Shown one piece after another: positions 2,773-64,000 of a stretch of 64,000 nucleotides of DNA; the stretch's first letter is position 1; every line of letters starts with the position of its first letter. This DNA is from an uncultured Chloroflexia bacterium (lineage in GTDB: Bacteria > Chloroflexota > Limnocylindria > QHBO01): NCBI GenBank assembly GCA_963810925.1, contig CAWEPF010000008.1, forward strand, positions 249,994 through 313,993, read 5' to 3'. A program made the position numbers and the translations under genes. The notes beneath the pieces were generated by a model. It searched no databases. It saw only the letters and a program-made list of their open reading frames with translations, and was not told the DNA's origin.

Positions 2773-3242
2773 TCGAGCGTGTAGAGGTACTCGACGATGG
2801 TCGCGATGTCCTCGGTCGACAGCTGCCCGCCGGGGCCGCCGAAGACCGGCATCCCGCCGCGGTCCAGGCCCGCCACCTCCGGCCCGCTGCCATCGATCCA
2901 CAGGTTGGGCCAGTCGTCAGGGTGATCGGTGCCCAGCTGCTGGAGGTTGTCGCTCTTGGGGCCGGCCGAGATGCCATGCAGGCTCGGGCCCACCAGGCCG
3001 GTCAGGTCGTCGCCATGACACGACTGGCAGCCGGCATGCTCGATCAGGGTCATCGCGTCCGCGGTGCCGCCCCCACTCGGGTTGGGCTGACCGCTTGGCG
3101 GCGGACCAACCAGGTCGGGATTCGTTCCCTCCAGGTTGAAGGTCAGCGACACGACGCCCAGGATCACCACGGCCGCGCCCACGCCCACGATCCAGCGCGG
3201 GATGCGCTCGGTACCGGTCTCGACCGGCGGAGGCCCGGTCAT
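2769..3242 (-). CDS. membrane-anchored mono-heme class I cytochrome c
   Basis: N-terminal TM helix (WIVGVGAAVVILGVVSL), a single CQSCH heme motif and a distal Met in GGMPVF. It starts 4 nt after the stop of the CcoN-like gene. Confidence 0.75.
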   Translation of the reverse strand: MTGPPPVETGTERIPRWIVGVGAAVVILGVVSLTFNLEGTNPDLVGPPPSGQPNPSGGGTADAMTLIEHAGCQSCHGDDLTGLVGPSLHGISAGPKSDNLQQLGTDHPDDWPNLWIDGSGPEVAGLDRGGMPVFGGPGGQLSTEDIATIVEYLYTLE

Positions 3243-3246
3243 CGGT

Positions 3247-4716: not shown

Positions 4717-4819
4717 CCGAGCGCGCGGGGCCTCCTGAATGGGAATCCCGTGTGAGTCGGTTCCGCACCGCGGGCCGCGCCCAGCGACCCGGCCGCATTG
4801 TAGCGGTCACAATCGCCGT

Positions 4820-6005: not shown

Positions 6006-7199
6006 ATGACGTCAAGCGATCCGGTCACGGCATCGGAGGCCAAGACGGCTCCCAGAGGTCTGTTGGGATCGCTCTCAGACCAGTTCGGCTTCCACCAGAT
6101 GATCAGCGACTACCTGATCCCCATCGAGTCGAACAACTTCTGGTACCTGCTCGGGGGGGTGCTGGGCATCGCGCTCGCGGTTGAGATCGGCACGGGCGTT
6201 CTCCTGTCGCTGGTCTACGTCCCGGATGCCGGGCAGGCGTTTGGCATTACCCAACATCTCATCACCACCGGCGGTTGGTCCATCGTCCTCAACTTCCACT
6301 TCTACAACTCGTTCGTGATCTTCGGGCTCGTGATGATCCACATGGTGCGGGTCTTCATCACGGGCAGCTATCGGCGTGGCAAGACGGGCCTGTGGCTGAT
6401 CGGCGTCGGTCTGGCCGCCGTCACCTTCGTCATCTCGCTCACCGGCGAGGCGCTTCATTGGGACGAGGTTGGCTTTGGCGTTCCCTGGAATGTCTCCGAG
6501 GTACTCGACGCCGTGGGTCTCGCCGCGTTCTTCGGGTACACGACCGACGCGCTGCTGGCCATCCCGACCGCCACCGAGAAGCTGACGCAGATCTACGTCC
6601 TCCACATCTCGATCGTTCCGATCGCGCTCGGTGTCCTCGTCGGCTGGCATTACCTGCTGATTCGGTTCAAGGGCATCTCCACCCCATTCTGGCTTCGGGC
6701 GAGTGGCCGGAAGGCCGGCTTTCTCGAGCACGTCCGCGGCTGGATCATTCTCAGCGCGGTCATCCTCGGCGTTGTCCTCCTCCTGGCGATCTTCGTTCCC
6801 CGCGAGGCCGGAACGGCGCCCCAGCTTCTTCCGTCCTCGCCGTTCTATGGCGTGGATGACGATCCCGGCGGACTTGGATTCAAGCCGACCTTCCCGATCA
6901 GCTGGACGCGCGGCATGAATATCGTCGCTGCCAACCTGGGGATCGATCCGGACATCTGGGGAGCGATGCTCGGGATGGGCATCATGCTCCTCGTCCTCGT
7001 CGTCGTTCCGTTCGTCGACCGAGGGGACCGGGAGCCGGACAGCTGGGCTGCCGCCTTCAACTGGCGCAAGCGGGGTTGGGCCTTCGTGGCGATGGGCGCC
7101 TTCTGGGTCGTGATGATCGGTGGGACTCATCGTCAACCAGATCACCGCCGCCGGCTGATCCAGGCAATCGAGCGGCCGAGGACAGGAGTGCACCGATAG
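6006..7199 (+). CDS. cytochrome b (fused b6 + subunit IV-like, stand-alone)
   Basis: H-x13-H in NFHFYNSFVIFGLVMIH and H-x14-H in LHISIVPIALGVLVGWH (bis-heme ligands). ATG at 6006 follows GGAGAAGG. The last ~25 aa are R-rich, so the 3' end is uncertain. Confidence 0.75.
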   Translation: MTSSDPVTASEAKTAPRGLLGSLSDQFGFHQMISDYLIPIESNNFWYLLGGVLGIALAVEIGTGVLLSLVYVPDAGQAFGITQHLITTGGWSIVLNFHFYNSFVIFGLVMIHMVRVFITGSYRRGKTGLWLIGVGLAAVTFVISLTGEALHWDEVGFGVPWNVSEVLDAVGLAAFFGYTTDALLAIPTATEKLTQIYVLHISIVPIALGVLVGWHYLLIRFKGISTPFWLRASGRKAGFLEHVRGWIILSAVILGVVLLLAIFVPREAGTAPQLLPSSPFYGVDDDPGGLGFKPTFPISWTRGMNIVAANLGIDPDIWGAMLGMGIMLLVLVVVPFVDRGDREPDSWAAAFNWRKRGWAFVAMGAFWVVMIGGTHRQPDHRRRLIQAIERPRTGVHR

Positions 7200-7329
7200 C
7201 CGCGCAACTGCACAGCCTGCTGGCGTTCGGCGCCGCGATGGTCGTGGCCGTCGCCGGCCTCGAGGCTACCTGTGGCGCGCTATCCGCGACGTCGCTCCGG
7301 GTACGGCGGCCTCGTGGCTCGAGGGCCTG

Positions 7330-7557
7330 GTGCTCCTGATCGTGGGCCTGAGCGCTGCGGCCGGCCTGGGCATGCTGGTCGGTGGAGCACGCCCCGCAGA
7401 GTTGCTCCATTTCGTCTACGCGGTGCTCGCCTTCGGCGCGCTGCCCGTCGCGGCATCCGTGTCCGCAACGTGGCAGCCGCGCCGTCGTGCCGCCGCGACG
7501 GTGGTCGCTTCGCTGATCGCGCTGGTCGTGATCATCCGCCTCTTCGCGACCGGCTAG
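7330..7557 (+). CDS. small hydrophobic membrane protein, 5' end unresolved
   Basis: Two TM-like segments. Another TM-like stretch (IAAQLHSLLAFGAAMVVAVAGLEA) lies just upstream in a different frame, which suggests a frame break near 7262. Confidence 0.35.
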   Translation: MLLIVGLSAAAGLGMLVGGARPAELLHFVYAVLAFGALPVAASVSATWQPRRRAAATVVASLIALVVIIRLFATG

Positions 7558-7559
7558 CC

Positions 7560-8798
7560 TCAGGTCGGGCGGTGCGCCCCCGGCTCCATGTCGACCATGG
7601 CCCAGTGGATTCCGTCCCGGTCCATGATGGCGAGGTACGGGTCCGCGTCAAATGCCTCCGGTCCGAGGACCCCGGTCCCGGACCACGCACCGGTGGCAAG
7701 GAGCTCCATGGCGACCACCGGATTGAACCCGGTCTGCCACCCGACCACCTGGACCCCGTACCGGCGCCAGGTGTCGGCGGCGTCCGCGTTCTGGTACAGG
7801 AACACCTCGCGCGGCCGGCCGTCCTTGCGACCGATGACCCACGTCCCGACCATGGCTCGCCCGACCATCCGGTCCCCCAGGGTGATGGGGTCGGGGGTGA
7901 TGGCCGCCAGCACGTCCCGCGGGGACACCTCCACGCCCTTGACCGAGACCTTGTCGGTGCGATGCATGCCCAGGGCGTGGATGGTCTTGAGCTTGTCGAT
8001 GAAGTCCTCGCCCAGGGCGTACTTGAAGGTGACGCGCCGCAACCCGGGAAGCTGGCGCGGCACGAGGAGCACCTCCTCGTGCTCCACGTTCACGCACTCC
8101 ATCGGTCCAATGCCTTCGGGGAAGGGGAAGGACTCGGGCGCGCTGAAGGGCTCGGTCGTGATCCACCCGTTCTGCTCACCGTTCCACTCGATGGGCGGGT
8201 TCAGGCATTCCTCGATCGTGGTCCAGATACTGAACACCGGAGCAAAGGCGTAGCCGGGAATCGCCAGGTCGCCACCGTCGCGGACGTGGACCTCGTGAAC
8301 CTCGTCGAACAGGTGGTCCGCGGCGTAGCGGGCGAACAGGTCGGCCAGGCCCGGATCCATGCCCATCCCGAGCACCGCCAGGCGGCCGTCGCGCACCCAG
8401 TCGTCGTGGCGGGCGAACTGCTCGTCCCCGAGCTTGAGCCCCGGGGTGTGGAACGGGTCGCTCGGGTGCGGGACCGACAGGCTGCAGGCCATGTCCATGT
8501 AGTTCGTGCCCGCCTCCAGCGCCCCGTCGAAGATCGACATCACGAACTGCGGGTCGACCGCGTTCATGACCAGGTCAGACCGATGGCGCCGCGCCAGCGC
8601 GGCGATGGCCGCCCGGTCGCGCGCGTCGATGTGCTCGACCGGGAACCGCTCCGAGTCACCGCCCAGGGCCGCCTGGAGCGTCTCCGCGCGGGCCGTGTCG
8701 TAGTCGGCCAGGACGAGCTGCTCGCACCACGCGTGAGTCGCGGCCAGGCGGGCGATGGACTCGCCCACCGTCCCAACCCCGATCAGCAGCACGCGCAT
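7560..8798 (-). CDS. saccharopine dehydrogenase family oxidoreductase
   Basis: N-terminal Rossmann motif MRVLLIGVGTVG and a 412-aa overall pattern typical of the saccharopine / carboxynorspermidine dehydrogenase family. Confidence 0.8.
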   Translation of the reverse strand: MRVLLIGVGTVGESIARLAATHAWCEQLVLADYDTARAETLQAALGGDSERFPVEHIDARDRAAIAALARRHRSDLVMNAVDPQFVMSIFDGALEAGTNYMDMACSLSVPHPSDPFHTPGLKLGDEQFARHDDWVRDGRLAVLGMGMDPGLADLFARYAADHLFDEVHEVHVRDGGDLAIPGYAFAPVFSIWTTIEECLNPPIEWNGEQNGWITTEPFSAPESFPFPEGIGPMECVNVEHEEVLLVPRQLPGLRRVTFKYALGEDFIDKLKTIHALGMHRTDKVSVKGVEVSPRDVLAAITPDPITLGDRMVGRAMVGTWVIGRKDGRPREVFLYQNADAADTWRRYGVQVVGWQTGFNPVVAMELLATGAWSGTGVLGPEAFDADPYLAIMDRDGIHWAMVDMEPGAHRPT

Positions 8799-51315: not shown

Positions 51316-52790
51316 TCAGGCCTCCGCCGGCAGGCGCAGGGTCCGGTCGGCCAGGGCGCTCACCAGCGCCTGGTCGTGGGTCGCGGTCACGACCGCTCGG
51401 CCCGAGTCGGCCAGCCCGGCCAGCAGGGTCAGCATCTCGTCCCACGTCCCGCGGTCTTGCCCGAAGGTGGGCTCGTCCAGGATCACGACCTGCGGCGCCG
51501 TCGCGAGGGCGGTCGCCACCGAGAGCCGCCGCTGTTCGCCGCCGGACAGGGTGAACGGGTTCGCCTCCCAGACGGCGTCGAGGCGCAGGCGTTCGGCCAG
51601 CTCGGTCGCGCGGCGCCCGGCCTCGACCTCGGAGAGCCCCGATCGAGTGGGTCCCAGGGCCAGCTCGTCGGCCACCCGCCCGGTGAGGAACTGGTGCTCG
51701 GGATCCTGGAAGACCGAACCGATGCGCGTCACGAGCTCCCGCGCCGGCCAGCGCCAGACCACGGCGCCCGCATGACCGGGAGAGAGGGCTTCGCTGGCCG
51801 TCACCTGCCCCGATTCCGGCCGAAGCAGGCCGCCGAGAAGCCGGGCCAGGGTGGACTTGCCCGACCCGTTGGGCCCCACCACGGCCAGCACCTCGCCTCC
51901 GCGGGCCGCCAGGTCGAGCCGCGTGAAGAGGGACTCGCCCGTACCCGGCCGCGAGGCGGACAGCTGCTCCGCCACCAGCAGTGCGTCGGACGGAGGGGCG
52001 ATCAGCGGGCGCGGCGGCCGGTGTCCCTCGTAGCCGGGCGTCCAGATCCCGTGGCGCGTGCAGACCTCTTCGTTGCCCACGAAGACCTCGGAGGGCGTGC
52101 CATCCAGGAGGACGCCACCCCCCGCGGCGAGGACGACGACCCGGCTGACCAGGGGCAGCCACTCCGCCACGCGGTGCTCGACCAGGACCATGGTCGCCTC
52201 CCGCTCCACGAGCACCCGGGCCAGTGTCTCGCGCACCCGCCGTGCCCCGTCGGGGTCGAGGTTGGCCGTGGGTTCGTCGAGCAGGAGCACGTCCGGCTCG
52301 AGGGCCAGCACCCCGGCCAGCACGAGTCGCTGCTGTTCGCCGCCGGAAAGCTGGTCGGTGGGGCGGTTCGGCCCGTACGCCCAGCCCACCGCATCGAGGG
52401 CGGCCCGGACCCGGGGCCAGATGGCATCGGTCGGGACACCGCGGTTCTCCAACCCAAAGGCCACGTCATCGCCGGCGCGGCTCATGATGATCTGGGACTC
52501 CGGATCCTGGAGGACGAGGCCGGTGTGCGCCCGGGCGTCGGCGGGCGACGCCTCCATTGCACCCGCAGGGTGCCCTCGGACTCGCCCGCTCCGCGGTCGT
52601 CGTGCAACCCGGCGAGGCCGGCCAGAAGGGTGGACTTGCCCGATCCGGACGCGCCCAGCAGCAGGACGCGCTCGCCCGCTGCGATCGTCAGGTCGAGGTG
52701 TCGAACCGCCCAGCCCTGGCGGCCGGGGTGCCGCCAGCCCCAGCCGTTGGCCTCGATGGCCGGAGCGCGGGACGGGCCTCCGTTGGTCAG
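51316..52790 (-). pseudogene. duplicated ECF/ABC ATPase (YkoD-like), one frame break, non-canonical start
   Basis: The first Walker A (GASGSGKST) is in track ORF 52482-52979. The rest, in 51316-52557, has two LSGGEQ(Q/R)RL signatures and a second Walker A GPNGSGKST. The frame break lies at about 52556-52566. The only start candidate is CTG at 52790 (CTGA overlap). Confidence 0.75.
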
Positions 52791-53356
52791 GTGGCCGCCT
52801 CCCGGCTGGTGCGACCCGAGGGGAAGGCGTCCAGCACCCCGGTCGGCCGCAGCAGGCGGACGAGGTACCACGATCCCAGGCCGGCGAAGAGGACCCCGCT
52901 GACCAGCATCCAGGCGCCGTACGCCAGCTGGACGGACAGGTCCACCCCCACGAAATAGAAGCTCATGTCGTGGATCCACTCACCGATGGAGGCGCCCGCG
53001 GCTGCCAGGAGGGTCATGGGCAGGGTCCATTGCCGATACAGCGCAAGGGCGAACACGAGCTCGGCCCCGAGCCCCTGCATGAGGCCCGAGGCCAGGGTGT
53101 CGATCCCCCACGCCGAGCCGAGCAGCGCGGACACGGCGGCGGCCATCGTCTCGGCCAGCAATCCGGCGCCCGGCAGGCGGACGATGAGCGGCGCCAGGAC
53201 GGCCGGGATGAGCCACACCCCCGACAGGATGTACAGCGGTGGCGCGAAGGCCGGGGCCGCCACCACGTTGAACAGCAGCCCCCAGGCCCAGAACACGACC
53301 CCAAAGGCCACGCCGATGGCCGCCGTGACCACGATGTCCACCGTCCGCCAGCCCAT
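52787..53356 (-). CDS. ECF transporter substrate-specific (S) component, thiamine/HMP-type (YkoE-like)
   Basis: 189 aa with 6 TM segments, first of the S-A-T gene order, under a TPP riboswitch operon. The ATG overlaps the thiamine kinase stop by 1 nt. Confidence 0.65.
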   Translation of the reverse strand: MGWRTVDIVVTAAIGVAFGVVFWAWGLLFNVVAAPAFAPPLYILSGVWLIPAVLAPLIVRLPGAGLLAETMAAAVSALLGSAWGIDTLASGLMQGLGAELVFALALYRQWTLPMTLLAAAGASIGEWIHDMSFYFVGVDLSVQLAYGAWMLVSGVLFAGLGSWYLVRLLRPTGVLDAFPSGRTSREAAT

Positions 53357-54006
53357 CAGGAAGCGCCTCCTTCGTCGTCGTTGATCTCGATCACCAGCAG
53401 TTGACCCGACTCCACCCACACGCCGGCCCCGATGCTGTCGACCCGATTGGCCAGACCCAGGGTGGATCCGGGCCCGAGGTGCGCGCCTTCCAGGGGCCAG
53501 TGCAGCCCGCTGGTCGTGACCCCGTCGACCGGACCGAGGGGGAGGAGGCTCACCCGAGCGCCGGGGCCTCCGTCCACGGACAAGCGACCGGGACCATGGA
53601 TCACCCGGGCCTGCGTGTGTCGCGCGCTGAGCCGAAGGGTCGCCCCGCTCGTGAGTTGGGTAGCCAGCAGGAGCAGGTTGGCCGCCAGGTGGTCCACCGC
53701 ACCACCGCGCCAGCCGACGACCACGATCTCGTCGGCCCCCTGGGCGAGGGCCCACGACAGGCTCAGCTCCAGGTCCGATGCGTCCTTGTCAACCGGATGC
53801 TGCTCGATCGCCACCCCCGCGGCCCGCAATCGATCCACGACGGCGGGGTCCGCCGAGTCGAGGTCACCGATGAGCCGATCCGGACGGACGCCAATCGCGT
53901 CGAGCCAGTTGGCACCGCTGTCGGCGGCGATGACGAGGTCGGCGCCGGTCAGCGCCTGCTCATCCCCCTGGTCGTGCTCGCCCCCGGCCACGATGACTGC
54001 CTTCAC
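53356..54006 (-). CDS. thiamine diphosphokinase
   Basis: VIAADSGANWL..PDRLIGDLDS...DKDASDLELSL motifs of the TPK catalytic domain plus a C-terminal thiamine-binding domain. GTG start. Confidence 0.8.
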   Translation of the reverse strand: MKAVIVAGGEHDQGDEQALTGADLVIAADSGANWLDAIGVRPDRLIGDLDSADPAVVDRLRAAGVAIEQHPVDKDASDLELSLSWALAQGADEIVVVGWRGGAVDHLAANLLLLATQLTSGATLRLSARHTQARVIHGPGRLSVDGGPGARVSLLPLGPVDGVTTSGLHWPLEGAHLGPGSTLGLANRVDSIGAGVWVESGQLLVIEINDDEGGAS

Positions 54007-54100
54007 GTCGACTCCCTACGCTGGCATAACCCAGGTCAGGTTCGAGGGTCTGCGGATGGCTCCGCACTCTCAGCGCCGAGGCGCTCCCCTGTCGTGCTCC
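54007..54100 (-). promoter_or_regulatory. TPP (THI-box) riboswitch
   Basis: The minus strand reads GGGGAGCGCCTCGGCGCTGAGAGTGCGGAGCCATCCGCAGACCCTCGAACCTGACCTGGGTTATGCCAGCGTAGGGAGTCGACGTG. It contains the conserved CUGAGA, ACCC, GAACCUGA and GGNUAAUGCCAGCG-like elements. Its 3' strand carries the GGGAG Shine-Dalgarno sequence and the GTG start. Confidence 0.85.
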
Positions 54101-54140
54101 CTGTCTCCGGCAGACTAGCACTCGCCGTACCATCGGTCCG

Positions 54141-54623
54141 ATGAGCACGGCAGACGAACGGGTCGCCCAGGCCGCCCGGGACGCGGGACTCGAGATCGAG
54201 GTCAAACGCTTTCCCGAGGGCACCCGGACGGCCGTTGATGCGGCCCGCGCCGTCGGCTGCGAGGTGGCCCAGATCGTCAAGTCGCTGGTGTTCCTCGCCG
54301 ACGGACAGGCGGTGCTCGCCCTCGTCTCCGGGGCGGACCGGGTGGACACCGGTCGGCTCGGTGCCGCGCTGGGCGCGACGCACGTCGACCGCGCCGATGG
54401 CGACACCGCGCGCGAGGCAACCGGCTATGCCATCGGGGGCGTGCCGCCCTTTGGCCACGTCCGCCCGGTGACGGTGGTCATGGACCGCCATCTCCTCGAC
54501 CACGACGTCGTCTGGGCGGCGGCCGGGCGACCCGACGCCGTGTTCTCGATCGCGCCCGAAGACCTTCGGCGGGTGAGTGGCGCCCAACTCGCAGACGTGG
54601 CCGAGGACCGGCCTGCTCCCTGA
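54141..54623 (+). CDS. YbaK/EbsC-type aminoacyl-tRNA editing domain protein
   Basis: VKSLVFL...GYAIGGVPPFGH motif pattern. 160 aa. Confidence 0.8.
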   Translation: MSTADERVAQAARDAGLEIEVKRFPEGTRTAVDAARAVGCEVAQIVKSLVFLADGQAVLALVSGADRVDTGRLGAALGATHVDRADGDTAREATGYAIGGVPPFGHVRPVTVVMDRHLLDHDVVWAAAGRPDAVFSIAPEDLRRVSGAQLADVAEDRPAP

Positions 54624-54641
54624 GCGCCGCGGCACCCACTG

Positions 54642-55631
54642 TTACTGCACCTGGCCCGAGGTCACGAAGATGGGCACGTAGAACCCGCCCAGGCGCCCCC
54701 AGTCGAACCAGACCGTGGGATACGCCTCGAGGTTGAACGCCTCGCTGTATGACCCCGAGGTGGCCGGGGCCCGCAGGCCAAACGTGAACCGTCCAACGCC
54801 GTCCGGCGGAACCGAGGCCGGGTCGAGGTAGGTGGCGATCCACGTCGAGGGCCAGTCGGCGGCGCGGAACCCGCTCGCTCGGCCAGCCGGGTTCGTGGTC
54901 CCGAGCAGGACGCGGTCGCCGGATCCGTCCCGCAGCCAGGTGCGGCCGCCCGTGTTCCGGAAGTCGACCCAATGGGTGATCGTGGTCAGGCGCTTGATGA
55001 CCTCGGTCGACCCGTTGCTCTCCCCCACGTAGCCGGCCAGGTACGCGACCCGGCCTGGCCAGGTGGTCCACAGGCGCCCGGACATGGGATCCACCGACTG
55101 CCAGCCGCCGCTCACCGGCCGCAGGAGCTCGAAGTGGAGGTGCGGCCCGGTGCAGATCCCGCTGCATCCGGACTTCGCGATGACCTGCCCCGCGGCCACC
55201 GATTGGCCCACCGTGACGAGGGCTCCCTGCTGGGCGAGGTGGTAGTAGAGGGTGTCGCGCCCGTCAGCGTGACGCACGCGTACGAAGTTGCCGTAGTCCC
55301 CGTGCTGATTGGTCCCGAATCCCTCCTCGAGTGACACGACCGTTCCGCTGCGAGCCGCGGCGACGAACGTCTGGAGCGGCATGGCGTAGTCCAGCCCGGT
55401 GTGCTGGTCGTACACACGCCCGGCGTGGGCCACGGTGTCGGCCCACAGCTGTCCGGTCCAGTCGAGCTGGTAGCCAACCCGTGAGTCACGGTCCATCCCG
55501 TACCCCAGGCTGAAGCCCGGATTGAGGAAGGGGAGAGTGAAGTCGTCCGCCGCGGCCACCGGACCGCCGGTGAGCAGCACGGCGGCCAGGCTGAGGACCG
55601 ATACGAGGAGCGACCGATGCAGGCGGTTCAT
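54642..55631 (-). CDS. secreted M23 (LytM) metallopeptidase with a C-terminal Ig-like domain
   Basis: Signal peptide. HTGLDYA, GNFVRVRH and GPHLHFEL zinc-site motifs. Confidence 0.8.
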   Translation of the reverse strand: MNRLHRSLLVSVLSLAAVLLTGGPVAAADDFTLPFLNPGFSLGYGMDRDSRVGYQLDWTGQLWADTVAHAGRVYDQHTGLDYAMPLQTFVAAARSGTVVSLEEGFGTNQHGDYGNFVRVRHADGRDTLYYHLAQQGALVTVGQSVAAGQVIAKSGCSGICTGPHLHFELLRPVSGGWQSVDPMSGRLWTTWPGRVAYLAGYVGESNGSTEVIKRLTTITHWVDFRNTGGRTWLRDGSGDRVLLGTTNPAGRASGFRAADWPSTWIATYLDPASVPPDGVGRFTFGLRAPATSGSYSEAFNLEAYPTVWFDWGRLGGFYVPIFVTSGQVQ

Positions 55632-56635
55632 GGCCGGCACCCCCGCCCATCGCCGAGCCAGCACGCAGCCGGCGAGGCCGGTCCCACGACCGCCCCGGAC
55701 AGGTCGAGGATCGTCCCGCCCTGGGCTGCCGAAAGGAGGAGCAGCGTGCCGTCGGGCGAGAAGCGGACGCTGTCGCCCGGTCCGATGTCGCGACCTGACG
55801 TCGCCTGACCGGCGTGCGCCAGATGAATCCGGCCGGCGGCTGCCCAGGCGACCCACCCACCGTCGGTCGAGACGTCGACCCTGGCCACCTGGTCGAGGTC
55901 CAGGATGGATGGGCGGGCCAGGCCGTTCACGGCGGTGATGACCGATATGCCGCCCTCGTCCCGGTGGCGGACGACGGCCGCAGCACCCGCCTCCAGGGGC
56001 AGGGCCTGGTACGTCAATACGGAGCTGCCGCCATCGTCGGCCGTCACCGGCGTCTCGACGCCACGCTCGGCGTCCACGATCACCGCCCGAGCCCAGGTCG
56101 GTGCCTCGACCGACGACAACCGGATGGCGAGGATCTGCCCATCGGGCAGGACGGCGGGCGACGAGCCGAACGGCCCGATCGCGAGCCTGGTGGCCACGTT
56201 GCTGTCGGAGTCGATCCGCCACAGGGCGCCCGCGCCGTCCACCGCCACCAGCCACGATCCATCGCCGGCAAACGCCGCTCCGCGGGCCCCGGGCAGCGCG
56301 ACGTCCGCCTGCGAGCCGTCGGCGTGGCTGATGGTCAGTGGCGCGACCTGGCCACCCGGCTGCTCCGCGAACGCGGCGCGAAGGCCATCCGGCGCGACCG
56401 CAACCACCGGTGCGGCGAAGGCGGTGGCTCCGCGCCTCGGCTCCACCAGGGCGAGGCCGCTCACCTCGCGGATGGGCAGCAACAGGCTCCGGCCGCTGTC
56501 CCGAACGGCCGCCGGGTCCAGCACGGTGACCGGGGGCGGTGGCCCGGCCTGCGCCTGTCCGGAGCAGTCGCTCAGGGCCAGGGCACTGATGGCAAAGGGG
56601 AGGACGAGCAGGGGGAACTTCCGGGTTCGAAGCAC
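55628..56635 (-). CDS. lipoprotein, beta-propeller (TolB-like) candidate
   Basis: GTG at 56635. Lipobox ALALSDC. Repeated DG(S/T)-(W/L)-(L/V) strands. ATGA overlap with the M23 gene. Confidence 0.55.
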   Translation of the reverse strand: MLRTRKFPLLVLPFAISALALSDCSGQAQAGPPPPVTVLDPAAVRDSGRSLLLPIREVSGLALVEPRRGATAFAAPVVAVAPDGLRAAFAEQPGGQVAPLTISHADGSQADVALPGARGAAFAGDGSWLVAVDGAGALWRIDSDSNVATRLAIGPFGSSPAVLPDGQILAIRLSSVEAPTWARAVIVDAERGVETPVTADDGGSSVLTYQALPLEAGAAAVVRHRDEGGISVITAVNGLARPSILDLDQVARVDVSTDGGWVAWAAAGRIHLAHAGQATSGRDIGPGDSVRFSPDGTLLLLSAAQGGTILDLSGAVVGPASPAACWLGDGRGCRP

Positions 56636-56772
56636 GGCAAACCTCCGAGACGACGTGGTGAGACGGGGAGGCAGATCAACGGCGGTCTGGGCGGCGGCAC
56701 GAGTCCTCGAGCAGATGAGAGGGCCAGCCTGATCGGCGTCGCTTACCGTGGACGTACCGCATACTCGCGGCC

Positions 56773-57529
56773 GTGACCGAGCTGGCCGCACCCCTCGCCG
56801 TCGTCGTCGCGGGCGGGCTCGCCGTCGTCGCCGGCGCATGGCTCATCCGTACGAGCGGGGCCCACACCGGCCTGGGGCGACGCCTCGCCGCCGCCCGGAC
56901 GATTCCTCTCGCCGAGCTCCACCAGCTCGCGGCCGCGAACGCCCTCCCCGCCGAACCGATCCGGATCGAGGGGCGGGTGCGCTGCGCGAATCCGATCAAC
57001 ACCCCGGAAGGCGATCGCCTGGCCGTCCTGCACCGCGACGTGGACGTGGCGCTGCCCGACGGACGCTGGCGGACGATCGAGCACTTGCGCGACGCGCGGT
57101 CGGTGGACCTGTGGGAGCGTGCCAGCTCGGTGCGGCTCGACCTGGGCACGGCGGGCGAACCCCTGATCACGATCCCGCACGTGTGGGACGGGACTCCCAG
57201 ACGAGCTCCCGGCCAGCTATCAGCCGGCGATCGAACGCCTGGCCGCCGAGATCGGCGCGCCGACCGCGGCACGGGCCACGACCCGGGAGATCACCCTCGT
57301 GGACCAGTTGACCGTGCTGGCCGTCGCGCGCCGGGACCCTGCCGGGCAGCTGCAGCTCACCCCGCCCGATGGCGGTTTCGTCGTGTCGGCGGTCGATCTC
57401 GACGTCGCCATGCGCCTCCTGGCGGGTCCGCGCCGGCCGCGGATGCTCGGCGGCTATGCCGTTTCGGCGTTGGGCGGAGTCGCCGTGTTCCTGGGCCTCA
57501 TCGGTCTGGTCGTCGCCCTCGTGGGATGA
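56773..57529 (+). pseudogene. membrane protein with N- and C-terminal TM anchors (GIDE-like?), one frame break
   Basis: The N-terminal 140 aa are in track ORF 56773 up to IPHVWDG. The +1 frame then reads LPDELPASYQPAIERLAAEIG...VDQLTVLAV to the stop at 57529. The frame break lies at about 57190-57196. Confidence 0.5.
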
Positions 57530-57649
57530 CGGCGGTACCGGGGGGAGGTACGAACGGGGTATGGAGGCGGCGACTTGCCGTTTCTAGCATGGGCCACACG
57601 CCGCCTACCAGATCCTCCAGTGGGGTCGGGCGGTCCGAATCGGTGAACG

Positions 57650-60490
57650 ATGGCCTCATCCACGACCTCGAGCGGGCGAACCGACGCGCTGATCAGCGTG
57701 GCGCAGGCGGCTGCCCTGCTCGGAGTCCATCCCAACACCGTTCGAGCGTGGACCGAGAGTGGTCGCCTGGCCGCCTGGCGCATCAATCCACGCGGCGACC
57801 GGCGCTACCGCAAGGCAGACGTCGAGCGGCTCCTGGCCGAAGGCGCCGCGGCCACCGGGAGTGATCCCGCCGGTTCGGGCGACGCCGGTTCGGGAACCGG
57901 GCGCGGGACCGATTCAGACATGGAAACGGCGGTCCTGACCCGCATCTCACAGGGGACCGTGGACGCCGGCAGCGTGGCTGCCGTGTGCCGGGTGACGGTC
58001 GAGTCGCTGCGCACGATCGAGGCCATCGCCCGTGTGGCGGTGTACCTCGTCCGCGATGACCGCCTGGTCCTCGAGACGCACGCCGGGCACAGCACCCCGC
58101 CGCCGCCCACCATGGCATGGCCTGGCGACACCGACGAGTTCGCGCCGGACGGGTCGATTCGCCTGCCGTTGACGATCGGGCAGGAGCGCATCGGCCTCCT
58201 GGTCGCGACCGATGAGTCCGGCGGCGCATTCCTGAAGTCCCGCCGCCGCTTCATGTCGGCCGCCGCGGGCACCGCCAGCGTGGCACTCCGCCATGCCCGG
58301 GTCATCGCCCGCGCCCGTCGCGAGCTGACCCGTGCCCGGGCCCTGGCCAGCGTCACCCGCGAGCTGACCGGCCAGCTGGAGCTGGGCGCGGTGCTGAGCG
58401 ACATCGCCGACCGAACCCGCGGCCTGTTCGACGCTGACCGGGTAGGCCTCTGGATGTTGACCGAGGAACGCGAGCATCCCTTCGACCTGGCCGCGGAACG
58501 GGGCATCAGCCCGGCATTCCAGGCCATGGTCGGCTCCCTCACCCTGAACTCCCCCTCCCTGGGAACACAGGCGGTCCGCGAACGGCGGACGTTCGTGGCG
58601 CGCCACGCCGACACCGACCCTTCCGTCGGCGCGCTCCAGGAGGTGTATCGCACCGAAGGCGTGAAGACCGCGTGCCTCGTGCCGCTCGTCTCCCACGATC
58701 GGGCGGTGGGCGTCATCGGCCTGTACCACTCCCGCGACCGGGAATGGCCCGATGACGAGCTGGGCCTGGCCCAGGCGTTCGCCAACCAGGCCGCGGTCGC
58801 GATCAGCAACGCCCGTCTGTATCGGTCCACCGCGGAGCAGGCCGCCCGGATGCGGTCCATCCACGACCTGTCGGCCCGACTGAACCGCCTGACCGACGTC
58901 CAGGCCATCGCCGACGCGATCGTGGCCGAGGCCAGCACCCTGGCCGCCTTCCACGACATCCGGATCTACACCGTCGACTGGGAGCGCGGGACGTGCGAGC
59001 CCATCGCATTCACCGATCGCCTGCTGGGAGAGGGAGACGGCGACTTCCGCGACCTGCTCCGGGTCGACATCGGTCCGGGATCGTTCACCGGCTGGGTGGC
59101 CGCCAACGCGCAGCCCATCCTCAGCAACGACGCCCTGAACGACACGCGCGGCCACACGATCGAGGGCACCGACGAGATCGAGGAGTCGATGCTCGTCGTC
59201 CCCATGGTCTACGAGGGCCGCTCGGTGGGCGTCATCGCCCTGTCCAAGCTGGGCGTGAACCAGTTCTCGACCGATGACCTGCAGACCATGATGATCTTCG
59301 CCGGCTACGCGGCCCAGGCTCTCGTCAACGCGCGGAGCTACCGTCGGCTGGAGGAGCAGTCCAGCCAGCTCGCCCGCCAGCTCGAGTCGCAGCGCAAGCT
59401 CCTCGACGTGAGCGCGCACGTCATGGGCACCCTCGAGCAGGAGGACATCCTGGAGACCGTCGCCGACGGGCTGAAGGCGGTGGTCCACTACGACAACCTG
59501 TCCATCTACCGCGCCGACAACGTCAAGCAGGTCCTTGTCCCGGTCCTGACCCGCGAGCAGCACGCCGAAGAGGTGATGCGCTACATCATCCCGTTCGGGC
59601 GCGGCCTCATGGGCTGGGTGGTCCAGAACGCCGAGGCCGTGCTGGCCAACGACGCGCTGGCCGATCCCCGCGCGCTGCAGATCCCCGGCACCCCGGCCGA
59701 CCAGGAGGCGCTGATCGTCGTCCCCCTGATCAGCGACGGCCAGGTCACCGGCTCCATGAACGTGAGCCGCGACGGTGGCGCTGACGTCTACTTCAGCGAG
59801 ACCGATTTCGAGCTGGTTCAGCTGTTCGCCGCCCAGGCGTCAGTGGCCCTCCGCAACGCGGACGAGCATCACGCCATGAGCCTGCGGGCCGAGACCGATG
59901 CCCTGACCGGTTTGGGCAACCACGGCGCCTTCCAGCGCGACCTGGCCGAGTCCATCGAGGCGCTCCGCAACACCGAGCCCAAGGAAGGGCACCTGGGCCT
60001 CCTGATGATGGACCTCGACCGATTCAAGTCCTACAACGACCGATTCGGCCATCCGGCCGGCGACGCGCTGCTGCACGCGGTGGGCGAGGCGCTCTACGCC
60101 GCCACGCGCAGCGACGACCGCGTGTACCGCTATGGCGGTGACGAGTTCACCGTCGTGCTGGCAGGGGTGGGCCTGCCCGAGGCCCAGCGGGTCGCGGAGC
60201 GTGCCCGACGGATGGTCGCCGCGGTGTCCATCGAGAGCGGCGCCGCCCCGGTCACGATCACGGTGGGCGTGGCCCTCTTCCCCGATCACGGGGCGGAGAA
60301 GGACGCGCTCATCGGCGCGGCCGACGCGGCGCTGTACACCGGCAAGCAGGCCGGTGGCGACCGGGTGGTCATCCCCGGCGAGAAGCCAAAGGCCCGCGCC
60401 CCGAAGGCGGCCGCCGGGCGCGATCCGCGCCGGGCCGTGGAGCAGCGCCGTCGCCGCAGCGACTCCCGCACCAAGACGACGGCCGCCTGA
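57650..60490 (+). CDS. HTH (excisionase/MerR-like) - 4x GAF - GGDEF diguanylate cyclase
   Basis: N-terminal ISVAQAAALLGVHPNTVRAWTESGRL helix-turn-helix, four GAF-like modules, and a C-terminal RYGGDEF active site preceded by DLDRFKSYND. Confidence 0.85.
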   Translation: MASSTTSSGRTDALISVAQAAALLGVHPNTVRAWTESGRLAAWRINPRGDRRYRKADVERLLAEGAAATGSDPAGSGDAGSGTGRGTDSDMETAVLTRISQGTVDAGSVAAVCRVTVESLRTIEAIARVAVYLVRDDRLVLETHAGHSTPPPPTMAWPGDTDEFAPDGSIRLPLTIGQERIGLLVATDESGGAFLKSRRRFMSAAAGTASVALRHARVIARARRELTRARALASVTRELTGQLELGAVLSDIADRTRGLFDADRVGLWMLTEEREHPFDLAAERGISPAFQAMVGSLTLNSPSLGTQAVRERRTFVARHADTDPSVGALQEVYRTEGVKTACLVPLVSHDRAVGVIGLYHSRDREWPDDELGLAQAFANQAAVAISNARLYRSTAEQAARMRSIHDLSARLNRLTDVQAIADAIVAEASTLAAFHDIRIYTVDWERGTCEPIAFTDRLLGEGDGDFRDLLRVDIGPGSFTGWVAANAQPILSNDALNDTRGHTIEGTDEIEESMLVVPMVYEGRSVGVIALSKLGVNQFSTDDLQTMMIFAGYAAQALVNARSYRRLEEQSSQLARQLESQRKLLDVSAHVMGTLEQEDILETVADGLKAVVHYDNLSIYRADNVKQVLVPVLTREQHAEEVMRYIIPFGRGLMGWVVQNAEAVLANDALADPRALQIPGTPADQEALIVVPLISDGQVTGSMNVSRDGGADVYFSETDFELVQLFAAQASVALRNADEHHAMSLRAETDALTGLGNHGAFQRDLAESIEALRNTEPKEGHLGLLMMDLDRFKSYNDRFGHPAGDALLHAVGEALYAATRSDDRVYRYGGDEFTVVLAGVGLPEAQRVAERARRMVAAVSIESGAAPVTITVGVALFPDHGAEKDALIGAADAALYTGKQAGGDRVVIPGEKPKARAPKAAAGRDPRRAVEQRRRRSDSRTKTTAA

Positions 60491-60496
60491 CGGCCT

Positions 60497-60520
60497 CATC
60501 CGGTCGACGGCGACCGGATG
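60497..60520 (+). terminator. hairpin after the GGDEF gene
   Basis: CATCCGGTCG-acgg-CGACCGGATG, 7 nt after the stop. Confidence 0.45.
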
Positions 60521-60537
60521 CTATCCTCGCCCCTTCC

Positions 60538-61248
60538 ATGCGCCAGCCTCGCCGGTTCCGCCTGCCCTTCGTGGTAGCCGCCGTGGTGCTGGCCCTGGTC
60601 GCAGCGGGATGCGGATCGCCGTCGCCCACGCCCAGCGCGGGGCCGTCCACCTCGGCGGGACCCACCCCAACCCCGCTTCCCACACCGGAGCCCACGCCGC
60701 GCTTCACGAACGAGCCTGACCCCACGCTGTCGGGACTCATCCCCGATGCGGTGGGGGCCGCGGCGGTCGACAAGCCGGACCCCACCGAATACGGGCTCAC
60801 CCCCGGCGACATCGGTCAGGCGGCCTACGGGGAGCTGGGCCTCCGCTTCCAGTCGCTGGTCATCGCCTTCGTCCGCGAGCCCCGCCTGAGCCTGTACGCC
60901 ATCCGGGTCGACGGCCCGCCCGTCCAGACCGAGGACCTCGAGCCGTACCTCGCCACCGCCGGCCGCTACGTGGGGATCGCGGGCCTCGAGCGCGACCCGT
61001 GGGAGCTGAAGGCCGTCGGCGACCACTGGACGTGGACCCGCCCCTCGGACAGCGCGACCCTGGTCGGGACGACGGTCTACACCTGGGCCGACGGGCACTA
61101 CGTGTTCCTGATGATCGGGGTGGACGACGCCCAGAACCAGGCCATGCTGGCCCTGCTGCCCGGCGAGGCCCCGCCGAGCCCCAGCCCGGAGCCCAGCTCG
61201 ACCGGCGCAGGCAGCCCCGAACCCTCGGCCCTTCCCAGCCCCTCCTAG
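60538..61248 (+). CDS. hypothetical lipoprotein with Pro/Ser/Thr-rich linkers
   Basis: Lipobox LVAAGC. A globular core is flanked by PTPSP-type low-complexity segments. Confidence 0.6.
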   Translation: MRQPRRFRLPFVVAAVVLALVAAGCGSPSPTPSAGPSTSAGPTPTPLPTPEPTPRFTNEPDPTLSGLIPDAVGAAAVDKPDPTEYGLTPGDIGQAAYGELGLRFQSLVIAFVREPRLSLYAIRVDGPPVQTEDLEPYLATAGRYVGIAGLERDPWELKAVGDHWTWTRPSDSATLVGTTVYTWADGHYVFLMIGVDDAQNQAMLALLPGEAPPSPSPEPSSTGAGSPEPSALPSPS

Positions 61249-61264
61249 ACTGTCGTCCAGACCG

Positions 61265-62269
61265 ATGGACGACCACGAGGACCTGACCAGCTCAGCCCGG
61301 AAGCGCGACCGGCTGGCCCGCCTGCTCGCGGTGGCCTCGATCCTGTATGCCAAGGGCAGCACCGAGCAGGGCGTGCCGGTCACCGAGATCGCGCGCCTGA
61401 CCGGCATGAACGTGCGGACCGTATACCGCGACCTCCGCGCCCTCGAGGACGAGCTGTCGGTCCCGATCTTCCAGGCCGGCCGAGGCCGGTACGGGATCGA
61501 GAAGAAGTTCTTCCTGCCCCCGCTCCACCTGAGCGTGCCGGAGGCCATCGTCCTGTTCCTGGCCGCCCGCCTCATCGCGCGCTGGTCCGACGAGGCGGAC
61601 CAGGTCGTCATCTCGACCTTCACCAAGATCGCCAGCGAGCTGCCCCAGCCCATCGCCCGCCACGTGACGGCGACCATGCTGGCGGTCGGCGCCCAAAGCG
61701 CGAACGAGCGTTTCACGGCCATCTTCAACAGCGTGGCCCGGGGCTGGGCCGAGGGGCGGGTGCTGGACATCGTGTACGAGGGCACCAACGGCGAGACGCG
61801 CCAGACCCGGGTCCAGCCCTACGCCCTGGAGCCCTACGCCGAGGGACGAAGCATCTACCTCATCGCGTTCGACGAGTCGGTGGCCGCGCTGCGCACGTTC
61901 AAGGTGGAGCGCATCAAGCAGGCCATCCTCACGCTGGATCCATACGAGATCCCCGAGTCATTCGACCCCGACCAGTTCTTCGCCCACTCGTGGGGCATCT
62001 GGTCGGCGGAGGGCACGCCCATCGAGGACGTCCGGCTGCGGTTCGAGAAATCGGTCGCGCGCCGCGTCCGCGAGACGGTGTGGCATCGGTCCCAGGTGTT
62101 GACCGATCTGCCCGATGGGCGAATCGAGATGACGGTCAAGGTCGCCGGGATCGTCGAGATCCGGCCATGGATCCTGTCGTGGGGCGACCAGGTCGAGGTC
62201 CTCGAGCCGGCCAGCCTGCGCGACGCGGTGTCGGCCGCGGTCCGCGGAGCAGCTGCGCGTTACGGCTGA
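61265..62269 (+). CDS. HTH-WYL-WCX transcriptional regulator (PafB/PafC-like)
   Basis: N-terminal HTH (VTEIARLTGMNVRTVYRDLRAL), central WYL-type domain (YLIAFD...RTFKVERI) and a C-terminal extension. Confidence 0.8.
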   Translation: MDDHEDLTSSARKRDRLARLLAVASILYAKGSTEQGVPVTEIARLTGMNVRTVYRDLRALEDELSVPIFQAGRGRYGIEKKFFLPPLHLSVPEAIVLFLAARLIARWSDEADQVVISTFTKIASELPQPIARHVTATMLAVGAQSANERFTAIFNSVARGWAEGRVLDIVYEGTNGETRQTRVQPYALEPYAEGRSIYLIAFDESVAALRTFKVERIKQAILTLDPYEIPESFDPDQFFAHSWGIWSAEGTPIEDVRLRFEKSVARRVRETVWHRSQVLTDLPDGRIEMTVKVAGIVEIRPWILSWGDQVEVLEPASLRDAVSAAVRGAAARYG

Positions 62270-62980
62270 TCGGACGCGGGATCCGGTCATGTCGAGCGGG
62301 AGGCGGAGGATCAGCGCGAGGGTCGGTCGGTCCGGCAGGGGTGCCGGGGTGAGCGGTGCCCGCCACCACGCCGTTCCGGCGGGTCCGGAGCGGTAGCGCG
62401 CCGACAGGCGACGCGCGGACAGGCCGTCGATCCCGAGCCGCGCCAGCGCCTCGGCCACGAGCGTCCCGTCGCCGCGATACCCGTGACCCACCGTGATCCG
62501 GTCGCCCGGGGCTAGGATCGCGGCCAGCCAGTCTCGGCGAACGGAGAACGAGCGGCGCATGACCGATTCCCCGCCGGCCCACAGCAGGTCGGCGGCGACG
62601 TACGCGGCCCGCCCGGGTCGGGGCTGCCGGCCTTCCAGGCGGGCCCGCAGGAGGTCCGGATCGGGCCGCCCGGCGTCGTCCAGCACCAGCAGCGTCCCCT
62701 CGACGACGACCCCGTCCTCGCTCAGCTGGGCGGGCAGCTCCGCCAGCTCGGGGAACGCGGCCTCGGCATCGGCCAGCCCGGCCACCTGGAGCCGGACCCG
62801 GCCCCGTTCGGCAAACGCCAGCGCCCGCGCGCCGGGCCACCACGGCTCGAAGAGATAGTCGGGATCGTCGAACGGCGCGGCCGCGTCCGACGGCTGCATG
62901 AGGGGGATTCGCGAGGGGAGGCGCGCCGGGCGGGGATCGAGGTCCGGTTCCGCCGGGAGGGGCAGCTGTTCGGCCGGCAC
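61958..62980 (-). CDS. ATP-dependent DNA ligase (LigD/LigC adenylation-domain)-like protein lacking all motif lysines; 3' end doubtful
   Basis: YLFEPWWPGARAL matches motif I EPKWDGxR, VVVEGTLLVLDDAGRPD matches motif III, GIDGLSARR matches motif IV EGxxxK, and TAWWRAP matches motif V WxKxK. GTG at 62980 or ATG at 62899. The last ~300 nt run antisense through the WYL gene. Confidence 0.5.
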   Translation of the reverse strand: MPAEQLPLPAEPDLDPRPARLPSRIPLMQPSDAAAPFDDPDYLFEPWWPGARALAFAERGRVRLQVAGLADAEAAFPELAELPAQLSEDGVVVEGTLLVLDDAGRPDPDLLRARLEGRQPRPGRAAYVAADLLWAGGESVMRRSFSVRRDWLAAILAPGDRITVGHGYRGDGTLVAEALARLGIDGLSARRLSARYRSGPAGTAWWRAPLTPAPLPDRPTLALILRLPLDMTGSRVRSAVTRSCSADRGRHRVAQAGRLEDLDLVAPRQDPWPDLDDPGDLDRHLDSPIGQIGQHLGPMPHRLADAARDRFLEPQPDVLDGRALRRPDAPRVGEELVGVE

Positions 62981-62988
62981 GCGGCGCG

Positions 62989-63916
62989 TCAGGCGGTCTT
63001 GCGCCGCCGGGTCTGACGGGTCTCGTCGGCCTCCGCCGGCTTGTCTGCGCGGCTGCGCTTCGCGGGCGTGGGCTTGGACTTGCGCGGCCGCGGGCTTGGC
63101 CTCCGCCGGCGCATCCCCGGCGGCCGCATCGCGCCGGGCCTCACGGGCCGCGGCCACGCTGGCCTCGAGGGCTGCCATCAGATCGCCGATCCGGGTGGGC
63201 TCCGCCTGGGCCATGGGCGTGGGCTCTTCGCCGGCCACCTTGGCCTCGATGACGCCCATCAGCGCCTCGCGGTACCCGTCGCGGTACTCGGACGCGTCGA
63301 ACGTCCCGGTCATGGACGCAATCAATTGCTCGGCCATCTTCCGCTCCGAGGCCTTGATCTCGATCCCCTCGCGGTCCACCGCGATCTCCTCGATGGGGCG
63401 CACCTCGTCGGGCCAGTGGAGGGTGGTCAGGAGCATCGATTCCGAGTAGGGATTGATCGCGGCCAGCTGCTCGCGGTCCTTCATGACCACCTTGCAGATG
63501 GCGGTCTTGTTCGCATCGGCCAGGACCTCGCGCAGGAGGAAGAAGGCCTTCTTGCCGACCGGATCGGGCTCCAGGTAGTAGGCGCTCTTCACGAACTGGG
63601 CACCGTGGGCTTCCTCATCGGCGTCCACGAACGTCTCGATCTCGATGGCCCGGATCGTCTTGAGCGGGACGGCCTCCAGGTCGTCATCGGTCACGACCAC
63701 GTAACGGCCCTTGCTCCACTCGTAGCCCCGCACCGTTTCCGAGCGCGGCACGACCTCGTCGTGGAACGGGCAGTAGATCTTCATCTGGATCCGGTTCAGG
63801 CAGCTGGCATGCAGCATGTTGAAACCGATGCCGCTCGACTCGGTCGCCAGGTACAGCTTGACGGGAATGGTCACCAATCCGAACTGGATGGCGCCCCGCC
63901 ACATCGCGCGTGCCAT
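62989..63916 (-). pseudogene. ku: Ku (NHEJ DNA-end-binding protein), probable +1 frame break before the basic tail
   Basis: MWRGAIQFGLVTIPVKLY and YYLEPD..G.KAF.LL motifs. As sequenced it is fused to the ligase-like ORF. The +1 frame from about 63085 reads RKSKPTPAKRSRADKPAEADETRQTRRRKTA with a stop at 62989-62991, which is a typical Ku basic tail. Confidence 0.7.
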
Positions 63917-64000
63917 AGGGTCGGTGAGGATACACCCGGTCTTCCAGCCCCCCAAGCGGGGCCGCTGGTCACGACGGCCCGGTGACCACCACCAGTGCCT

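Follow-up and report, generated by a model that had tools for sequence, protein, structure and literature searches.

A lysine-less ligase-like protein encoded directly behind ku in Limnocylindria: a candidate non-catalytic partner of Ku in bacterial end joining

Introduction

Why would a bacterium keep, directly behind ku, a gene for a ligase-like protein in which every catalytic lysine has been replaced? This question is raised by a 64,000-nucleotide (nt) stretch of DNA from an uncultured Chloroflexia bacterium (contig CAWEPF010000008.1; hereafter the window), in which the ku locus lies on the minus strand near the 3' end. In bacteria, non-homologous end joining (NHEJ) has usually been described as a two-protein system composed of Ku and LigD. 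At this locus, Ku is accompanied by a small protein, here called pLig, which has the fold of the nucleotidyltransferase (NTase) domain of LigD-type ligases.

In all relatives, ku and pLig are two genes, and the second encodes a ligase fold that has lost its catalytic lysines, is conserved and is strictly linked to ku. We consider it reasonably probable that pLig acts as a non-catalytic partner of Ku in end joining and is made together with it, the single reading frame that joins the two genes in the window being most likely an assembly error. An earlier description of the window, made from its letters alone (the preliminary description), had spoken of a catalytically dead ligase fold kept beside Ku; motif alignment, fold and conserved ku adjacency now support this claim, and its suggestion of an NHEJ scaffold or end-recognition factor is still the best reading of what pLig may do. 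The corrected models of the two genes are as follows.

62989..63916, minus strand: ku, from ATG 63916 to the stop at 62989-62991; the model needs a 1-nt frame correction within about 63070-63091
62260..62980, minus strand: the lysine-less ligase-like gene (pLig), from GTG 62980 to TAA 62260-62262, about 240 amino acids (aa)

Results

A ligase fold without the catalytic residues of a ligase

As sequenced, 61958..63955 on the minus strand is one open frame of 665 aa, in which Ku is followed by a LigD-type NTase domain; the preliminary description had likewise seen ku and a ligase-like open reading frame (ORF) share one frame of this length. Residues 16-267 are a bacterial Ku (TIGR02772 E 1e-79, 267 bits against a cut-off of 150; Pfam Ku E 5.5e-41) with the core beta-barrel/bridge domain and, in frame 1 after a 1-nt correction, a basic C-terminal tail. 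The actual ku start is ATG 63916 (MARAMWRGAIQ...), which matches every homologue. Residues of about 347-532 match the NTase domain of ATP-dependent ligases, best that of the LigD type (NF007210 E 8e-25; TIGR02779 E 4e-19). A profile of 56 family members aligns with the ligase domain of Mycobacterium tuberculosis LigD (1VS0, 6NHX) at E 4e-20, with the motifs free of gaps, and agrees with the motif-by-motif, in-register lysine substitutions listed in the preliminary description.

62825..62848, minus strand: motif I, EPWWPGAR (residues 45-52); FEGKWDGYR in LigD, FEPWWPGvR in the family; Trp47 opposite Lys481 of LigD, Pro opposite the Asp
62678..62710, minus strand: motif III, VVVEGTLLVLD, with Thr96 for the Glu of DGE; VLDGEAVVLD in LigD, VLDGTLLVLD in the family
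Motif IIIa: EFWAFDLL in LigD, AYVA(A/S)DLLW in the family
62411..62428, minus strand: motif IV, DGLSAR, with Lys replaced by Arg190; EGVIAKR in LigD, DGLSARR in the family
62354..62368, minus strand: motif V, WWRAP, with two Lys replaced by Arg and Pro; WVKxK in LigD, W(L/W)R then AP in the family

The position of the adenylated lysine of motif I is thus occupied by tryptophan in the profile alignment, and motif III reads EGT in the window and DGT in most relatives. Altogether, six of the seven canonical nucleotide and catalytic contacts are altered. Among them are the residues that contact the metal and the ribose (Asp to Pro, Glu to Thr) and the aromatic residue that stacks on the adenine (now Ala or Ser); Trp47 probably fills the nucleotide pocket. 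Because the catalytic lysines are lost across the family, pLig is predicted to be unable to form lysyl-AMP and hence to be no ligase; assays of nick sealing and self-adenylation would be expected to be negative.

The fold itself is retained. An AlphaFold2 (AF2) model built from a diverse alignment has a predicted local distance difference test score (pLDDT) of 90.5; an earlier run from a shallow, family-only alignment gave a pLDDT of 50 and was discarded. Foldseek searches with the model return adenylation domains of archaeal, LigD and human ligases (E 8e-15 to 1e-9; template modelling (TM) scores 0.62-0.76), the best matches having root-mean-square deviations (rmsd) of 2.1-2.8 Å. As the preliminary description had it, no OB domain is present: there is no match to PF04679, and the chain, and with it the AF2 model, terminates about 20 residues past motif V. 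pLig therefore has the adenylation (NTase) fold of ATP-dependent ligases and lacks their features at motifs I, III, IV and V and the OB domain. Scores against curated models are correspondingly low. The match to PF01068 stays below the gathering cut-off of 26.2 (19.7 bits for the window copy; range 19.7-24.2), the best NCBIfam match reaches 87-92 bits against a cut-off of 989, and every NCBIfam cut-off for LigD, LigC and LigB ligases is missed. A protein that fails each defining catalytic feature as well as the curated threshold should not be annotated as a ligase.

A conserved family strictly linked to ku

A protein search with pLig gave 819 matches, of which the best 120 are all 201-239 aa long and 68-96% identical; where labelled, these come from Candidatus Limnocylindria or Chloroflexota, and they are annotated as "hypothetical" at NCBI and as "bifunctional NHEJ protein LigD" at JGI. 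Relatives were found in 266 of 185,579 species-representative genomes, nearly all of them metagenome-assembled genomes (MAGs) of Limnocylindria/Chloroflexota; the few odd taxon labels are probably binning errors. In related genomes, ku-adjacent ligase homologues without the KxDG motif, which the preliminary description had proposed to look for, do occur: where DNA upstream of the pLig homologue is included, as in 78 loci, ku is its immediate upstream neighbour in every one. Nor are the orthologues of close relatives ordinary active ligases, as the same substitutions are fixed in them. Two divergent members (P0122 and P0280, about 45-50% identity) again lie immediately 3' of ku in two wholly different neighbourhoods, P0122 overlapping the ku stop by 4 nt and P0280 following after a 32-nt gap, so that ku and pLig behave as a two-gene module.

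The sequence of the family is under constraint. Among 56 aligned sequences, 72 columns are invariant, including E45, P46, W47, W48, P49, G50, R52, T96, R190, W205 and R207, and the pairwise ratio of nonsynonymous to synonymous substitution rates (dN/dS) has a median of 0.27 (2845 pairs). Lysine is absent from 64 of 77 members, and the remaining 13 have a single one at a variable place. Zero lysine was considered as a special signal and rejected: the local proteome (ten proteins, window 52790-63916) is lysine-poor, with 1.5% Lys against 5-12% Arg, and at that frequency zero lysine in 230 aa has a probability of about 0.03 for a single protein. The absence is thus not an independent anomaly, and the weight lies on the loss at catalytic positions while the neighbouring ligase keeps them, since an intact three-domain ligase in the same locus retains KYDGIR, DGE, EGLMVK and WLKLK. 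Taken together, these patterns indicate a conserved family whose lysine-less state is under selection, and not decay.

In the main clade, this three-domain ligase is encoded on the ku strand, 3-6 kb upstream of ku, in 62 of 80 loci; the other loci for the most part do not extend that far upstream. It is an ATP-dependent enzyme of 574 aa with DNA-binding, adenylation and OB domains and scores above the cut-off of TIGR00574. It is found, for example, at 3027-4751 of locus L001 and 5358-7082 of L002; in the window, the corresponding position falls beyond base 64000, and so was out of reach of the preliminary description. It is followed by genes for a DUF6812 protein and an OsmC-family protein, a layout conserved in most loci.

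Is there any sign that pLig could still touch Ku? In M. tuberculosis, the LigD adenylation domain contacts the Ku C-terminus, D522 and L580 take part in Ku binding, and D522R abolishes it (bioRxiv 10.64898/2025.12.12.693941). These two residues align with the invariant E88 and W151 of pLig, whose conservation fits a Ku-binding surface that may have been kept. pLig is acidic, with an isoelectric point (pI) of about 5.1; the tail of Ku, by contrast, is basic.

One frame or two genes

The ku and pLig frames of the window are disrupted at two places, the second of which lies close to a gene on the opposite strand.

63070..63091, minus strand: Ku-tail frame disruption; 22 nt absent from L001, equal to 7 codons plus 1 extra base (DNA alignment)
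62286..62289, minus strand: pLig 3' frame disruption; a 1-nt insertion relative to relatives, which abolishes the normal pLig stop
61265..62269, plus strand: HTH-WYL-WCX regulator gene, convergent with pLig; the 3' ends of this gene and corrected pLig overlap by 10 nt, as in L001

In the closest relative (L001 = L005, a 182-kb MAG contig; 96% aa identity), ku and pLig are separate, with an 8-nt gap. All relatives have two genes, ku encoding about 280-350 aa in intact loci (mostly about 300) and the second gene 203-239 aa. The pLig start (GTG, rarely ATG or TTG) is found 5-11 nt, mostly 8 nt, past the ku stop in about 65 of 74 loci, and the N-terminus read from this conserved start is (M/V)PxEQLPLP. 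GTG 62980 of the window is likewise 8 nt past the frame-1 ku stop. In frame 1, the Ku tail reads ...KSKPTPAKRSRADKPAEADETRQTRRRKTA and ends at 62989-62991, which is the lysine-rich tail known from L001; the preliminary description, which had restored such a tail by a +1 shift near 63085, is therefore borne out. Compared with L001, three of the five differing codons of the tail are synonymous in frame 1, against none of three in the frame as sequenced. A second suspect region had been placed at 62290-62330; a second frame problem is real, but it sits just outside that region, at about 62286-62289. After correction, pLig ends in ...LRLPLD(x)PDPASDQP with its stop at 62260-62262, versus PDRASAQP in L001, and uncorrected its frame continues to 61958, antisense to the WYL gene over about 310 nt.

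A third gene of the window is broken as well. At 57190, within a gene on the plus strand at about 56773-57526, one nucleotide is inserted relative to L001, and the gene, homologous to that of a 251-aa protein of unknown function, is thereby split into two frames. Three frame-breaking single-base insertions (about 63082, about 62288, and 57190) hence fall within 11 kb, and three broken genes over this distance are the pattern expected of consensus errors. Similar ku/pLig breaks occur in two of the 21 loci from long-read MFD MAGs and in none of the short-read loci. The long-read MAG loci L057 (Ku ORF 7144-7473) and L038 (junction of ku and the second gene at about 7918-8049) have a truncated ku or a disrupted pLig start, and these breaks fit indel errors in long-read assemblies.

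The frame shifts of the window are very probably assembly errors, and the single 665-aa frame then results from 1-nt indels that set the window apart from every relative. It is improbable that the shifts are real, in which case the strain would make a 665-aa Ku-ligase-like fusion that lacks the basic tail of Ku and runs on out of frame into a long C-terminal extension, or both genes would just have been inactivated. The sequence as given is indeed one uninterrupted frame, and no contradicting reads were found among public sequencing runs, which come from related strains only (at most 25% of words) and whose contigs miss 63070-63100 and 62290; a search for RNA runs yielded none. However, the fusion occurs in no relative, the Ku tail frame retains synonymous-biased change, the C-terminal extension runs antisense to the WYL gene, the third insertion breaks an unrelated gene 5 kb off, and comparable breaks are confined to long-read MAG loci.

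Conserved peptides at both termini

Outside the folded domain, two short segments of pLig are conserved, neither of which figures in the preliminary description.

62951..62968, minus strand: QLPLPA at residues 5-10, near the N-terminus; by its pattern, a candidate motif for beta-clamp binding; low pLDDT
62291..62329, minus strand: C-terminal tail RPTLALILRLPLD (residues 218-230), which sits where the OB domain would begin

At residues 4-11, [ED]-Q-L-x-L-[PS]-[V/I/L...]-P is found in 77 of 79 loci, with Q in 73 and both leucines in all of these 77; 58 of them match Q-phi-x-L-x-[LFIVM], and three family members read exactly QLSLPL. The segment is modelled as flexible, at low pLDDT. A pentapeptide (QL[SD]LF) and a hexapeptide (Q-phi-x-L-x-L) consensus for binding to the beta clamp, placed in flexible terminal or linker segments, have been described (bioRxiv 10.64898/2026.05.27.728225; PMC5397184), and the N-terminal clamp motif of Escherichia coli Hda is 6-QLSLPL-11 (PMC5397184). 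The family peptide QLxLP[VI] fits the hexapeptide consensus, and docking on the sliding clamp is a speculative extension of the match. Among 50%-identity representatives of ligase-like proteins with a free N-terminal peptide, a clamp-like motif is present in 19 of the 44 lysine-less proteins and in 2 of the 28 lysine-containing ones (Fisher p = 0.001); several of these motifs are textbook matches (MPQLSLF, QLSLKL, QLTLHL, QLSLGL).

The C-terminal tail is nearly invariant in the family (RPTLALILRLPL), with R218, P219, T220, L221, L225, L227 and L229 invariant in the alignment (pLDDT 57-69). It is common to other lysine-less families with or without an OB-like domain. A role of the tail as a Ku-specific docking motif was considered, and is weakened by its presence in sister families that are not beside ku.

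Lysine-less relatives at other loci

The ku-linked family is not alone. An exhaustive search of the representatives gave 8562 matches at E <= 0.001, including many ligase-like proteins without the motif I lysine. Two of these adjoin full-length LigD. P0204 (362 aa; Ser replaces the lysine, QLTLQL is found at the N-terminus, and the C-terminal tail is that of pLig) is encoded 4 nt upstream of a 932-aa LigD on the same strand, and P0157 (355 aa, Leu at the lysine position, with an OB domain) lies beside a 927-aa LigD. These loci are L092 (1585-5476) and L089 (979-4839). Sister families that are lysine-less and have no OB domain, P0282/P0291 (FEPRWGGRR; FEPWWGGERV), are found at L086 8001-8744, L087 3919-4662 and L088 3383-4174; one of them directly follows PPK2, with PPK1, CYTH-CHAD, GBBH-like_N and YbjQ genes close by. 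L088, which carries P0291, and the LigD locus L092 have flanking genes in common (DeoC, GBBH-like). With lysine-less paralogues beside both LigD and ku, the loss of lysine in LigD-like paralogues at NHEJ loci is recurrent.

A ku-specific promoter motif and its WYL neighbour

Upstream of ku lies a motif that is nearly confined to this gene.

63927..63946, minus strand: ku promoter/operator motif TGGAAGACCGGGTGTATCCT; family form T[TG]G-N7-G[GT]TGTA-N3-T

Its -10-like element TATCCT stops 10 nt ahead of the ku ATG. The window contains one match, even at 1 mismatch, and 1.09 Mb of related loci contain 62, of which 61 are less than 150 nt upstream of ku; the lone match elsewhere (L058, about 13498, minus strand) is upstream of a lipoprotein-WYL gene pair. 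A sigma-70 reading of the promoter was rejected, as no more than 8 nt separate the TTG element from the -10 element, too little for a -35. Activators of the PafBC type, which contain WYL domains, act at -26/-10 promoters with tGTCgg-N10-tAnnnT (PMC8635444). The geometry of the ku promoter resembles this type, and a WYL regulator gene is adjacent; a WYL-regulated promoter may be suggested by analogy.

The regulator gene convergent with pLig encodes wHTH, WYL and WCX domains in this order (Pfam HTH_11; WYL 1e-12, 48 bits; WCX 5e-20, 72 bits; HTH_PafC weak) and is found near the ku-pLig pair in 72 of 80 loci. A link to defence systems was examined and rejected: PADLOC gave no match for Ku or pLig, and only generic WYL models match the regulator. 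In a subset of loci, about 3 kb separate pLig from the WYL gene and encode a 736-aa membrane/TPR protein and a 211-aa CYTH-like protein (for example L040 8712-11554). Elsewhere in the window, a plus-strand gene at 57650-60490 is in synteny with ku in 58 of 80 loci. Its 946-aa product has a MerR/HTH_17 domain at the N-terminus, together with multiple GAF domains; its apparent GGDEF-like C-terminal output domain was read from the translation and is not among the Pfam families listed. The next gene, at 60538-61248, encodes a 236-aa putative lipoprotein.

Discussion

A possible role for pLig in end joining

How could a ligase fold without ligase chemistry serve end joining? In the scheme that we propose, ku and pLig would be made together from a ku-specific promoter, probably with translational coupling. 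pLig would correspond to the NTase domain only of a LigD-type ligase, with a short conserved tail in place of the OB domain, and the fold would serve on as a platform that binds Ku and/or the broken end. Of the two terminal peptides, the N-terminal QLxLP[VI] may dock on the beta sliding clamp and the C-terminal RPTLALILRLPL on some partner, so that the former would link Ku-bound ends to DnaN. Sealing would be left to a real ligase, for which the intact three-domain ATP-dependent enzyme encoded 3-6 kb upstream in relatives is a candidate. From sequence comparison, we infer a role of pLig in NHEJ and its binding to Ku, and regard it as a putative natural pseudo-ligase module of bacterial NHEJ.

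Several observations weigh against this proposal, in addition to the read coverage at the frame shifts given above. The acidic character of pLig does not favour general DNA binding. The conservation of the three-domain ligase near ku could be plain synteny within one class. The window copy of the clamp-like motif (QLPLPA) has Ala at position 6, where about a quarter of members are non-hydrophobic. Finally, both terminal peptides also occur in P0282/P0291, which are not beside ku or ligD but in polyphosphate-kinase neighbourhoods, so that the module is not intrinsically Ku-specific.

The same Ku linkage, fold mimicry and docking peptides would also be expected of a negative regulator or decoy, in which a ligase mimic occupies the Ku C-terminus and/or the clamp pocket and holds back end joining; an acidic pLig beside a basic Ku tail would suit it too. 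We regard this as rather unlikely, since co-transcription and apparent translational coupling would hold the two proteins at a more or less constant ratio, and an inhibitor that can be switched is not usually made in this way, although activation and inhibition are not separable from sequence.

Could pLig instead be catalytic in a non-canonical way, or bind a ligand? Sealing of pre-adenylated nicks (step 3), use of another nucleophile, or sensing of ATP or AMP might be envisaged. Arg52 of motif I is invariant, the lysines of motifs IV and V are conservatively replaced by the invariant Arg190 and Arg207, and one sister family adjoins PPK2, a nucleotide-phosphorylating enzyme. Moreover, some ligases retain the sealing of pre-adenylated nicks when the motif I lysine is mutated. 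However, six of the seven canonical contacts are changed, the OB domain is absent, and the pocket is probably occupied by Trp47. Leftover nucleotide binding or step-3 activity is unlikely, and we give explanations of this kind little chance.

That pLig is a recently decaying ligD/ligC pseudogene whose catalytic residues were lost through disuse, as the preliminary description had considered, can be dismissed almost entirely: all catalytic lysines and the OB domain are gone and the window copy has its 3' frame disruption, but EPWWPG, DGT, DGLSAR and WLRAP are fixed across 266 species-level genomes, length, start context, invariant non-lysine motifs and purifying selection (the dN/dS and 72 columns above) are maintained, and the gene stays behind ku in three unrelated neighbourhoods.

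A non-catalytic partnership of pLig with Ku is therefore our preferred reading, and it invites a broader one. Lysine-less, LigD-derived pseudo-ligases may form a widespread and so far unrecognised class of bacterial NHEJ accessory proteins with a clamp motif and an RPxLALLxRLPL tail, encoded beside ku in Limnocylindria or beside ligD in other lineages, and coupling Ku- or LigD-bound ends to the clamp. We put this forward tentatively, as a possible but doubtful generalization. If such a class exists, end joining would be multi-factor, and "Ku only" organisms could be NHEJ-proficient.

If pLig itself is what we propose, an obligately Ku-linked, non-catalytic ligase-fold protein would be a third NHEJ component and, among bacteria, the first natural parallel to what eukaryotic ligase IV and its partners do in a non-enzymatic or structural capacity. 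Full-text literature searches gave no description of a lysine-less or inactive ligase homologue partnered with Ku. There is also a consequence for annotation: because the JGI label is LigD, the NCBI label is hypothetical and the Pfam score is sub-threshold, surveys would either credit these genomes with a ligase that they lack, or score them as "Ku only". The enrichment of clamp-like motifs in lysine-less relatives further points to a connection of end joining with the sliding clamp that can be put to the test.

Comparison with known systems

The closest sequence relatives of pLig are the LigD ligase domain (M. tuberculosis 1VS0, 6NHX/6NHZ) and LigC (NF007210 E 8e-25; profile E 4e-20). With the LigD ligase domain it has the adenylation fold (TM about 0.65-0.70, rmsd 2.5-2.8 Å) and the ku linkage in common, and E88/W151 are like D522/L580 in kind. 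What separates it from LigD and LigC is the absence of Lys and Asp from motif I, of Glu from motif III and of Lys from motifs IV and V; further, it is free of OB, polymerase and phosphoesterase domains, has additional conserved peptides at its termini, and scores far below curated cut-offs.

In eukaryotes, XLF, PAXX and APLF are non-enzymatic NHEJ accessory factors with terminal Ku-binding peptides. Like them, pLig would be a small, non-catalytic, Ku-associated factor with short conserved terminal peptides, although their folds are unrelated to that of pLig and, to our knowledge, bacterial Ku lacks the domains to which the XLF, PAXX and APLF peptides bind. No bacterial counterpart of factors of this type was found in the literature searched.

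The N-terminal peptide finds its parallel in the clamp motif of Hda (PMC5397184): in pLig, a Q-L-x-L-P-[VIL] hexapeptide occupies residues 5-10 of a flexible N-terminus, and three members match QLSLPL exactly. Hda is otherwise an unrelated protein, the window pLig has Ala at the last position, and clamp binding of pLig is predicted by pattern.

On the regulatory side, the ku motif is like PafBC promoters (PMC8635444) in having no -35 and an element at about -26, about 14 nt upstream of TAnnnT, and here too an HTH-WYL-WCX regulator gene adjoins a DNA-repair operon. It differs in sequence, TTGC-N6-GGTG-TAnnnT versus tGTCgg-N10-tAnnnT, and apparently in scope, as a single-operon target and not a regulon.

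A non-catalytic contribution of ligase IV/Dnl4 to end joining has reportedly been seen with yeast Dnl4 catalytic mutants (PMC3694833). Those are engineered mutants of an active eukaryotic enzyme, whereas the inactivity of pLig would be natural and conserved and reside in a separate bacterial gene, so that another ligase must seal. What the two would have in common is a ligase fold that aids NHEJ without chemistry of its own, and Dnl4 thereby offers a precedent for a structural role of pLig beside Ku.

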